IMG/VR virus record: IMGVR_UViG_2740892232_000011
From: a virus
Taxonomy: Duplodnaviria; Heunggongvirae; Uroviricota; Caudoviricetes
DNA: 24,393 nt
Strand: one strand, 5' to 3'
Every line of letters starts with the position of its first letter. Within the stretch, counting starts at the first letter, position 1. The translations under genes and the position numbers were made by a program. Below the pieces are notes generated by a model, which was not told the DNA's origin, did no database searches, and saw nothing but the letters and a program-made list of their open reading frames with translations. Of this stretch, positions 7,174-19,862 are shown piece by piece.

Positions 7174-7179
7174 GTCCAT

Positions 7180-7885
7180 AAGAAAGCCCCTCCGGAGAGG
7201 GGCTAAAGCCGCGTATCTGTATCATCATGCACATGGTGCCGGGTGCCTCCCGGTGAGTTCAGCCCGGTGCCACTAAACCCGCGTCATTCTCGTTTTGATA
7301 ATCAGAGATTATACCGTCACCAGTCGCCCCTCCGCTCAGGGGGATTCACCATGCGAAATTTTTTTAACAAATGCCCAGTCTGACAGGCAACTGTCAACTT
7401 ACTGAATTGTGAGCAACATAGCATTTAACGGGGAACCTGTTTTCTGCAGTAAAAAGGCCCACCGGAGCGGATGGGCCTGGAAGGATAGCGGTCATGTGAT
7501 GCCGGTTTCCCGGTAACTCAGCACCGGTATCTGAGTCAACGTTTTCTCTACTGGGTCATTTCCGATACGCCCTGCCTGCTGACAGGCTTTCATCACATCT
7601 GAAAATATAGCACCCTGACTGATACTGTAGTACCTAAGGTTCCAGAAACTGTGATGTATCCGGCACAGAAAAGCCCCTCCGGAGAGGGGCTGGAGAGTGG
7701 CGCTATGTGCCATTGCATGGTGCCGGGTGCCTCCCGGTGAATTCAGTACCAGCACCTGAATCCGCGATTATCCCATATACCTACTCGCTGATTGCCCCTC
7801 CGCACAGGGGGATTCACCATGCCAGTTTCTTTTAACAAACTCCCCGCAAACCAGACAACAGTCAACCGCCTGAATTGTGAGACAT
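7180..7885. repeat. Two imperfect direct copies (~7180-7405 and ~7668-7885) of a ~220-bp modular noncoding unit between the tRNA cluster and nanS
   Basis: Shared blocks in the same order: AAAGCCCCTCCGGAGAGGGGCT (22/22), CATGGTGCCGGGTGCCTCCCGGTGA (25/25), GCCCCTCCGC..AGGGGGATTCACCATG, TTTTTAACAAA, CTGAATTGTGAG. Each copy ends (minus-strand sense) with a GC-rich hairpin plus T-rich tail. Confidence 0.75.
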
Positions 7886-15169: not shown

Positions 15170-15856
15170 TCACTCCTTCTCTTCTTTATCGTAGTGGAGT
15201 TGACCAATTTTGATAAGAGGGCGTCCCTGAGATTTGCGGTGTAGATTGGTATCGCGCAGAGAATACACACAGCCACAATATTCCTGCTGATAGAATTTTT
15301 CGCGCTTGCTGATTTCAATCATGCGGGACGAGCCGCCCTGCTTGCGCCAGTTATAATCCCAGTACACCATGCCCGGATAATGCGCGACGGCTCGCCGCCC
15401 ACAGTCGTTAACCTGCTGCATATTTTTCCAGCGTGAAATGCCCAGTGAACTGCTGATCACACTGAAACCATTTTCAGCAGCGTACAGCGCTGTCCGCTCA
15501 AAACGCATGTCAAAACACATGGTACAACGGATCCCCCTCTCGGGCTCCCATTCCATTCCTTTGGCACGTTCAAACCAGTTGTCTGTGTCGTAATCAGCAT
15601 CAATAAATGGCACGCCGTGTTGTTCAGCAAAGCGAATATTCTCATCCTTACGAATTAAATACTCTTTCTGAGGATGAATGTTCGGGTTGTAGAAAAAGAT
15701 GGTATAGTCGATTCCCGAGGCCTGAAGCGCCTCCATCACTTCACCGGAACATGGAGCACAGCAAGAGTGCAGTAGTAGTTTGTTTGCCCCGTTTGGGAGC
15801 TCCAATTTAGGCCGTTTGAAATCAGCAATAGTCATAAATATTTTTATTGGGGTCAT
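15170..15856 (-). CDS. QueH-like protein (DUF208 epoxyqueuosine reductase family), tentative
   Basis: 228 aa with N-terminal [15 protein letters not shown] block, which I recall as the conserved Cys cluster of DUF208/QueH, plus further conserved Cys/His ([17 protein letters not shown]). No clear SD before the first ATG. Confidence 0.5.
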
Positions 15857-16037
15857 GAAAATAGCACAGAGTGTAGCATCAGAGCAGGGCTATCGGGAAT
15901 AGATGTCTAAATCTGGTAATATCTGCTTTTGACGCAAAGCAGACAACCACGCTAGCTCAATCCTGTGCCGTGAAAATGTCAATTCACATCTGAACTAATG
16001 CTCTTTAATCTAGTTACGTCTATAAATAACGAAAATT

Positions 16038-16436
16038 TCACTGATAAAATGCCAGTATGCGCTGCATAACTTCGCTCTTCCGGCACTCACAGCAAATTAT
16101 GTTTTGGTGCCTGTCATAACGACGTATTTCTCCGTCAGGTAATGACCAGATAAGGTCCGGATCAACCACAGATGTTTTCTTCGCCTTTGCCCTCGAGAGT
16201 TTTTTGCGGGCGTTTTGCCAGTCCTTACGAGCCTGTTCAGACGGGAATAACCCGTAGCCAGAGTTATATACATCACCACTGGCAACCAGCTCTCTGGCGA
16301 GAACGCTCATCAGATATCTTGTCGCACCTGTCTTGGCTTCCAGTTGCCGTAACGTCTCGCGCCCACTCCGGCGTACTAGCTCAACAACCTGCCCCTTGAT
16401 TTTTTCCCGCTCTTCTTGTGTAAAAACTTTTGCCAC
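16038..16436 (-). CDS. Hypothetical basic protein (132 aa)
   Basis: GTG start with AAGGGGGAC RBS; C-terminal CCECRK Cys cluster; helical, Arg/Lys-rich. Lies where the helicase loader (P) sits in lambda but is too small and shows no Walker motifs. Confidence 0.55.
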   Translation of the reverse strand: MAKVFTQEEREKIKGQVVELVRRSGRETLRQLEAKTGATRYLMSVLARELVASGDVYNSGYGLFPSEQARKDWQNARKKLSRAKAKKTSVVDPDLIWSLPDGEIRRYDRHQNIICCECRKSEVMQRILAFYQ

Positions 16437-18811: not shown

Positions 18812-18967
18812 ATGGATACTATCGATCTTGGCAACAGCGAATCTCTGGTGTGCGGCGTGTTCCCCAACCAGGACGGCACGTTCACCGCGATGACGTATAC
18901 CAAAAGCAAAACGTTTAAAACCGAAAATGGTGCCCGTCGCTGGCTGGAAAGAAACTCAGGTGAGTAA
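18812..18967 (+). CDS. Small early-left protein (51 aa)
   Basis: ATG with GAGGT RBS; MDTIDLGNSESLVCGVFPNQDGTFTAMTYTKSKTFKTENGARRWLERNSGE; stop adjoins next ATG (TAAtATG). Confidence 0.5.
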   Translation: MDTIDLGNSESLVCGVFPNQDGTFTAMTYTKSKTFKTENGARRWLERNSGE

Positions 18968-18968
18968 T

Positions 18969-19544
18969 ATGGATTTCGACACAATCATGGAAAAGGCTTA
19001 CGAAGAATACTTCGAAGGCCTTGCCGAAGGCGAAGAAGCTCTCAGCTTCAGTGAGTTTAAACAGGCACTCAGAATAAGAATGTGCTCTCACAATGACGCG
19101 GAGCACAAATATGAGAAGCAAAATCAGACCGCAGAAAATTTTGTTCTGGAACCCGGAGAAACGCTTTTCAAAATTCCCGTTACGTGCCCCATTTGCGGTT
19201 TTACATCAGAAGAACTTGACGACTCCTGTAACAATCAGGAAACAACCAAGTATGTCGAAGATGATACCGAGTGCGCACGAAGAACGATTATATCCACGAG
19301 TCCAAACTCCAGGACCAATAAATCTCACTTTGAGAGGGTGATTAATCCACTCCCCCAAACCAATAAAAAAGATGCCGGAGGACAAAAAACCCAATGGAAC
19401 AACGGGATATCTGTCAAAAAAAGACGTTCCATTAAAGACAAACAACGCAGCGCCAACAACTGTAAGCGCTTTATACCAGTAATCAATTTTCATGTTCTTA
19501 AGCGGATTTATTGGTGGTTGCGACATTGCTTAATGAATCCTTAA
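18969..19544 (+). CDS. Early-left ORF (191 aa); N-terminal ~100 aa protein-like with CxxC, C-terminal half probably an antisense artefact
   Basis: AGGTGA RBS; acidic N-terminal region with VTCPICGF. From about residue 110 the sequence is low-complexity K/N/Q/R-rich, as expected for the antisense frame of the minus-strand membrane ORF it overlaps. Confidence 0.4.
   Translation: MDFDTIMEKAYEEYFEGLAEGEEALSFSEFKQALRIRMCSHNDAEHKYEKQNQTAENFVLEPGETLFKIPVTCPICGFTSEELDDSCNNQETTKYVEDDTECARRTIISTSPNSRTNKSHFERVINPLPQTNKKDAGGQKTQWNNGISVKKRRSIKDKQRSANNCKRFIPVINFHVLKRIYWWLRHCLMNP
19206..19526 (-). CDS. Small membrane protein (106 aa, about 3 TM), antisense to the early-left operon; possible superinfection-exclusion-type gene
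   Basis: Hydrophobic segments ALTVVGAALFVF, VVPLGFLSSGIFFIGLG, ALGIIFDILGCFLIVTGVV. Opposite orientation to neighbours, as recalled for sieB in Rac. Shorter than known SieB proteins. Confidence 0.4.
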   Translation of the reverse strand: MSQPPINPLKNMKIDYWYKALTVVGAALFVFNGTSFFDRYPVVPLGFLSSGIFFIGLGEWINHPLKVRFIGPGVWTRGYNRSSCALGIIFDILGCFLIVTGVVKFF

Positions 19545-19819
19545 AACTGTGGTGATTTTAAGGATACCACCTCGCCTGACGTGGTTAAAAGCAGGCACAC
19601 AACACGAAAGCGCACGGCGAAGTTCGTCTCACTGTACGGTGTCGTTAAATTTAATTCGACCGTGCGCTTCCGGTTGTGGCAACCCGCAAAATGGCGCGGC
19701 GGTAAGTATGGCGGGGTTATTCCTTCCCTGTTGAGGACACCGAGTTGTCAGGTTGACCATACGCTTAAGTGACAACCCCGCTGCAACGCCCTCTGTTATC
19801 AATTTTCTGGTAACGTTTG

Positions 19820-19862
19820 GCGGTATCAGTTTTACTCCGTGACTGCTCTGCCGCCGTTTTTA
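19820..19862 (+). terminator. Candidate intrinsic terminator in the early-left operon
   Basis: GGCGG...CAGT-tttactccgtg-ACTG...CCGCC followed by GTTTTT; compound hairpin. Confidence 0.35.

Follow-up and report, generated by a model that had tools for sequence, protein, structure and literature searches.

The prophage and the neighbors of queH

The whole stretch of DNA analyzed here (the window, 24,393 nt) is an E. coli lambdoid prophage, the center of which is identical to a Qin-type prophage of E. coli MS 85-1; its other parts share 94-98% identity with prophages of MS 21-1, APEC O18, and CE10. The ORF list places two minus-strand ORFs at the locus of interest, one at 15170-15856 that codes for 228 aa from its first ATG and is assigned below to queH, and a second that codes for 132 aa. 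On the upstream side of queH lie a CI-like repressor gene on the plus strand and then, on the minus strand, genes for a Cro-like protein, a YdaT/CII-like protein, an O-like replication protein, and a DUF977 protein. The order on the downstream side is KwaA/KwaB cassette, hok/sok, DUF968, RusA, Q, and DNA methylase, followed by three tRNA genes, a SASA esterase, lysis genes, and terminase. This gene order agrees with the first-pass annotation, which had placed the gene in the replication/nin region next to the cassette. The tRNA genes occupy a position between methylase and esterase like that in Stx-type phages, and the prophage tRNA with the CAU anticodon is annotated as Ile in related genomes. 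In the immunity-left region, an ORF of 205 aa (18927-19544, plus strand) has no match in Pfam. Coordinates of the features are collected in Table 1.

Table 1. Features of the prophage window, with position, strand, and the evidence or remark attached to each.
Feature	Position	Strand	Evidence or remark
Carbohydrate esterase, 617 aa	5098-6951	-	DUF1737/SASA/DUF6645; late-region slot
STnc100 sRNA, two copies	7174-7383 and 7661-7851	-	Rfam, above gathering score
Three tRNA genes (Arg-UCU, Arg-UCG, CAU)	7926-8175	-	Between DNA methylase and esterase
N6/N4 DNA methylase, 349 aa	8225-9274	-	Upstream of the tRNAs
sok antitoxin RNA	12909-13083	-	Beside hokD; Rfam, above gathering score
Kiwa cassette	13097-15074	-	kwaB 13322-14350, kwaA 14347-14961
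queH CDS, 221 aa	15170-15835	-	PF02677, PDB 7lc5, AlphaFold model, PGAP 666-nt CDS
Conserved short leader	15836-15884	-	With queH in all prophage backgrounds; alignment of six alleles
Variable rest of DUF977-queH spacer	15885-16037	-	Differs between prophage types; homology breaks in HannyBb and a Rac-type locus
DUF977 gene (YdaW/LygF type), 132 aa	16038-16436	-	PF06163, phrog_142; usual upstream neighbor of queH
DicF	19805-19856	+	Rfam, above gathering score

The 132-aa neighbor, previously left unassigned, belongs to the DUF977 family. It matches PF06163 over profile positions 1-130 of 134 with an E value of 5.9e-29 and a score of 101.3 bits (cut-off 22.1 bits), and it matches phrog_142, labeled 'Ren-like exclusion protein', at E 4.3e-44; in Rac-type phages the DUF977 protein is annotated as LygF. 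Genes of this family are common after the replication genes in Rac/Qin-type prophages; 4065 E. coli genomes were matched, most of them through DUF977. Of 80 IMG/VR proviral loci (the best 80 of 216 contigs), 70 have a DUF977 gene upstream of queH. No solved structure related to the DUF977 protein was found. Neither this protein nor QueH matches a defence model in PADLOC, and membership of either in a defence system was rejected on that ground.

The cassette on the other side of queH is a Kiwa system, in which PADLOC identifies the adjacent genes for KwaA (E 1.3e-101) and KwaB (E 1.5e-159); the Pfam score for KwaB is above its cut-off, and the NCBIfam equivalog scores of the Kwa proteins are below theirs. 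The cassette has a GC content of 29-36% and has inserted between queH and hok/sok. Direct repeats of 41 nt, 80% identical to each other (13056-13096 and 15075-15115), border it on both sides, and cassette-free prophages have a single copy of this 41-nt element. The cassette is an independent insertion, unrelated to queH, because only 6 of the 80 IMG/VR proviral loci with queH (again the best 80 of 216) carry Kiwa. A functional link between queH and Kiwa was rejected on this count together with the separate, low-GC, repeat-flanked character of the insertion.

The queH product and its reading frame

The first-pass annotation had associated the 228-aa ORF, by an N-terminal cluster and further Cys/His positions, with the QueH/DUF208 family, and had proposed a search with PF02677 and an alignment to characterized QueH; both bear out the assignment. 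The product, which has its N-terminal Cys cluster at residues 27-37 and further RCTMC and YCGCV motifs, has a PF02677 (QueH) hit with an E value of 1.9e-65 and a score of 220.6 bits, far above the curated cut-off of 23.5 bits, over practically the whole profile (positions 1-174 of 175). QueH of Thermotoga maritima (PDB 7lc5) matches the product at E 5e-22 over residues 27-203, and PGAP names the identical 666-nt CDS 'epoxyqueuosine reductase QueH'. The AlphaFold model of the product, built from a 39-sequence alignment, has a mean pLDDT of 95 and a pTM of 0.91, and superposes on 7lc5 and on the queuosine complex 9deu with a TM score of 0.92 (target-normalized) and an rmsd of 1.2 Å. T. maritima QueH, the queuosine complex among its entries, takes all of the first five places in the PDB search with the model (rmsd of 1.2-1.3 Å over 179 columns), after which only distant folds of the PP-loop/TtuA type appear, with E around 1e-4.

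The 39-sequence family alignment covers 35-86% identity and has 15 invariant columns, all of which are conserved in the prophage protein: C25, C26, C29, N52, R62, E99, R103, C104, C107, R111, K137, Q184, C187, G188, and C189, numbered according to the 221-aa form described below. The family-invariant cysteines among them (C25, C26, C29, C104, C107, C187, and C189) make up the motifs CCxP[C/D], CxxC, and CxC. These cysteines presumably hold an Fe-S cluster and an extra iron, an assignment of ligands that draws on PDB entry titles. At one motif position the protein seems to depart from the T. maritima enzyme, the Asp13 of which corresponds to Cys in the prophage protein (CCAPD versus CCAPC). When this column was counted on 150 family representatives clustered at 50% identity, Cys was found in 114 and Asp in 3 of the ∼122 that cover the position; on these counts CCAPC is the family norm and the T. 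maritima Asp is the minority state. The loss of Cys/Asp ligands that the first-pass annotation had named as evidence against its assignment is therefore not seen. According to their entry titles, C9S and D13N mutants of T. maritima QueH have been deposited in the PDB, so the depositors evidently judged those positions to be mechanistically important.

By sequence, predicted fold, and conserved residues the prophage ORF is thus a bona fide, full-length member of the QueH family. It shares with T. maritima QueH (7lc5, 7lc7, 9deu) the full-length domain, the fold, and the CC.../CxxC/CxC cysteines, but is only ∼30% identical to that crystallized enzyme, has Cys for Asp13, and is encoded by a prophage rather than a chromosome. 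A 25-residue C-terminal tail, common to enterobacterial QueH, also distinguishes it from the T. maritima protein. The earlier suggestion of a diverged family member with another substrate finds no support, given that all invariant residues are kept and that identity to the chromosomal QueH of other Enterobacterales is 83-92%.

The ORF is present as listed, 228 aa long from the ATG at 15856, but the conserved gene is shorter: it starts at a second ATG, at 15835, and encodes 221 aa. In a Rac-type allele ATT stands in place of the first ATG, phage HannyBb diverges over residues 1-7 of the longer form, and the second Met is the start both in chromosomal homologues and in the PGAP call. Alignment of six alleles reveals a 14-nt block, CTCTGATGCTACAC (15883-15870, minus strand), that is kept upstream of queH in every one of them and that may be a promoter element, a leader, or a recombination joint. 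This block is retained even in one background with otherwise unrelated flanks.

No Shine-Dalgarno sequence was seen in the leader ahead of queH. A scan of the minus strand from 15857 to 16037 found neither a sigma-70-like promoter nor a terminator, and a promoter or terminator of its own for queH was rejected on this basis; an extended -10 element read by hand upstream of the gene (TGcTATTTT) is weak and is not kept in the Rac-type allele. Because no such signal of its own was detected, queH is probably transcribed by read-through from the early-right operon. The variable part of the spacer contains an 8-bp hairpin, TCTGCTTT-gcgtc-AAAGCAGA (minus strand), and the spacer folds slightly better than its shuffles, with a z of -2.0. 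A riboswitch or other RNA element was considered and rejected, as the region upstream of queH matches no Rfam family at gathering or relaxed thresholds and the spacer z is only -2.0. On the far side of the gene, 4 nt past the queH stop, begins a six-codon ORF, MEHLSY (15165-15145, minus strand), with AAGGAG ∼8 nt upstream; it is probably a chance occurrence.

Distribution and origin of prophage queH

Of 5426 complete E. coli genomes, 995 (∼18%) carry a queH gene, at 92-100% nucleotide identity and nearly always as a single chromosomal copy. The same 5426 genomes all have queG, in agreement with the first-pass statement that E. coli uses QueG, so that QueH, wherever present in this species, comes in addition to another enzyme for its step. 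RefSeq lists the exact 221-aa protein, on at least 1000 contigs, as 'MULTISPECIES: epoxyqueuosine reductase QueH [Escherichia]', and UniProt has a QueH entry for the 228-aa version. Since both enzyme family and exact protein already bear the name QueH in RefSeq and UniProt, the identification alone is not new. The description of such a gene as unexpected in a lambdoid prophage accords with a 2019 survey of viral genomes, in which QueA, QueG, and QueH were encoded by no virus (PMC6884629) and with which the phage carriage seen here is at odds, but sits less well with its presence, already named, in 18% of E. coli genomes. No paper on phage-borne QueH turned up in the literature searched, which did not include the original QueH papers.

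Among the carriers are an O104:H4 strain, in which a Qin-type prophage has the order DUF977-queH-hokD; a Rac-type prophage with the order racR-ydaSTUV-DUF1627-DUF977-queH; E. albertii; and the isolated temperate phage HannyBb, in which the gene is labeled 'hypothetical'. The queH slot is identical in Qin-type prophages, Rac-type prophages, and HannyBb. A relative is present on 216 viral contigs in IMG/VR, and the best 80 of these reach 99-100% protein identity. Short fecal contigs, 280-380 kb 'phages', and tiny Listeria/Staphylococcus records with QueH look like chromosomal contamination and are left out of the phage counts. The corresponding phage family, PHROG 3217 ('unknown function', 188 aa), aligns to residues 41-228 only, and phage pipelines leave queH unnamed because this family begins at Met41: phage gene calls then start there too, cutting off the N-terminus and with it the CCAPC motif.

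Outside Escherichia the nearest relatives of the protein are in Scandinavium (92%), Kluyvera (91%), and Enterobacter (88-90%), with QueH of Erwinia, Providencia, Photorhabdus, Pantoea, and Serratia at 79-86%; the closest chromosomal queH genes of other Enterobacterales encode proteins 83-92% identical to that of the prophage. Chromosomal QueH from Enterobacter, Kluyvera, Scandinavium, Erwinia, Providencia, Photorhabdus, and Pantoea has the same length and residues as prophage QueH, but its gene sits among ordinary genes, whereas prophage queH occupies the lambdoid slot. The chromosomal contexts include purL-queH-glrK in Erwinia, a position beside tmcA and purC in Providencia, and surrounding metabolic genes in Enterobacter and Scandinavium. 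In 80 species loci, DUF977 lies within 5 kb of queH only in E. albertii. Nucleotide similarity between prophage and chromosomal genes ends at the CDS boundaries, which argues that the phages captured a bare gene. Lambdoid phages thus appear, from these sequence comparisons, to have taken queH from a chromosome elsewhere in the Enterobacterales. Among prophages the module is compact, the Rac-type background being homologous to the window from 15884 to 15166 only.

Prophage alleles have a dN/dS of 0.05-0.06 at dS of 0.10-0.44. All 80 full-length IMG/VR copies examined (the best 80 of 216 contigs) are intact, and their 19 nucleotide alleles encode 7 proteins that differ only at residues 3, 41, 144, 211, and 216, with no invariant residue altered. 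The low dN/dS and the 80 intact copies indicate that queH is in use and is not a decaying passenger.

A proposed role in queuosine formation

QueG needs cobalamin and E. coli makes no cobamide de novo, so a prophage-encoded QueH would free queuosine (Q) formation from the supply of B12. The E. coli queuosine pathway is fully described (PMC5372724), and its last step is stated to be cobalamin dependent by Frey (1988), as cited in PMC4646009. QueH is a non-orthologous, iron-dependent replacement for QueG (PMC5372724; PMC13443448). E. coli QueG shares its reaction and its tRNA substrates with QueH, but has an unrelated fold with cobalamin and two [4Fe-4S] clusters, whereas QueH is iron-dependent and cobalamin-free (PMC13443448; PMC4646009). 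The coexistence of the two enzymes in ∼18% of E. coli genomes has a counterpart in S. aureus (PMC13443448).

On the strength of sequence and predicted structure, we consider it likely that the prophage gene encodes a working, cobalamin-free Fe-S epoxyqueuosine (oQ) reductase of the QueH type, which would make Q formation in the host independent of B12. The enzyme would reduce oQ34 to Q34 on the host tRNAs for Asn, Asp, His, and Tyr, which have GUN anticodons. The host Tgt and QueA would supply the oQ-tRNA, with the prophage bringing the last step only; as no other gene of the pathway lies in the window, the oQ-tRNA must be made by the host. The gene would have been captured from an Enterobacterales chromosome to become single-gene cargo after the replication genes (DUF977-queH-hok/sok). 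Completion of Q without B12 could act in the lysogen, in phage development, or in both. The enzymatic activity, the B12-bypass benefit, and the expression timing of prophage QueH are inferred, and the benefit is conjectural, as no E. coli phenotype that separates oQ from Q is established and queG deletion left growth unchanged in one study (PMC11841063). The three prophage tRNAs (Arg-UCU, Arg-UCG, and the CAU tRNA) include none with a GUN anticodon, and phage tRNAs as substrate, one of the earlier suggestions, were accordingly rejected.

A broader and more tentative possibility is that a temperate phage rewrites the tRNA modification of its host, the oQ reductase uncoupling Q maturation from B12 to the advantage of lysogen or phage. 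Such uncoupling might matter where B12 is scarce, or where pressure from phages or colicins has selected btuB mutants, and the gain could be a translational or stress-response advantage for the lysogen or the developing phage. In Shewanella, conversion of oQ to Q rises on phage infection (preprint 10.64898/2026.03.05.709803); by analogy, a regulated oQ-to-Q step in phage infection fits with a phage rewriting host tRNA modification. The preprint indicates that this step can be limiting and phage-relevant, and has no direct bearing on prophage queH.

It is also conceivable, and we think rather unlikely, that QueH serves the phage only in lytic development, tuning host tRNAs from oQ to Q with no benefit to the lysogen, whether by favoring the translation of phage genes or by manipulating a Q-dependent host response to infection. 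This explanation would suit the position of queH in the early-right operon, past the Cro, CII-like, O-like, and DUF977 genes with no promoter or intervening terminator detected, as well as the retention of the gene by the isolated phage HannyBb and the Shewanella observations. However, the prophage genes use NAU/NAC codons in an ordinary way, with U-ending fractions of 0.48-0.62 that hint at no phage-specific need for Q, and a good many of the carriers are likely to be defective prophages of Qin/Rac type, which would rarely be lytic, yet queH is strongly constrained. Nor is oQ known to differ from Q in its effect on decoding.

That queH has no function and hitch-hikes, or is a remnant decaying in defective prophages, is very improbable: it does duplicate a host function encoded by the universal queG, and loss of Q maturation is without clear phenotype (PMC11841063), but a dN/dS of about 0.05 at dS up to 0.44, the intactness of every copy examined with only peripheral substitutions, and the maintenance of one slot across prophage backbones and in a viable phage all argue against it.

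Least probable of all, to the point of being scarcely credible, is a role in DNA modification or anti-restriction, in which QueH would act on a 7-deazaguanine derivative such as deoxy-epoxyqueuosine in phage DNA. Phages are known to use Q-pathway enzymes on DNA (PMC6884629), but the window has no DpdA/TGT, QueA, or preQ0 synthesis gene, dQ was absent from every phage DNA tested in that survey, the protein is close to housekeeping-type chromosomal QueH, and the prophage already has an N6/N4 DNA methylase. The first-pass annotation had raised this function and proposed a search for partner genes; TGT/DpdA, QueA/C/D/E/F, and FolE are absent from the sizeable ORFs of the window, outside which the structural-gene end of the prophage lies, and from the PGAP annotation of near-identical prophages. 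Phages 9g and CAjan, in which FolE/QueD/QueE/QueC accompany DpdA, modify their DNA and are reported without QueA/G/H (PMC6884629). Such systems have in common with the window the carriage of a Q-pathway gene by a phage, but they need DpdA, whereas the window holds just the last step of the pathway, which is specific to tRNA, and no DpdA was found in it.

For the reading preferred here, that of a cobalamin-free QueH completing Q on host tRNAs, the under-reported part is the context, namely a queH gene under strong purifying selection on lambdoid prophages in about one fifth of complete E. coli genomes, including O104:H4. If the enzyme is active, carriers grown without B12 would be expected to contain Q in place of oQ, and would offer a natural system in which to ask what the difference between oQ and Q does and whether phages exploit it. 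If the rewriting of host tRNA modification were true as well, it would amount to a phage-driven lysogenic conversion of the epitranscriptome.
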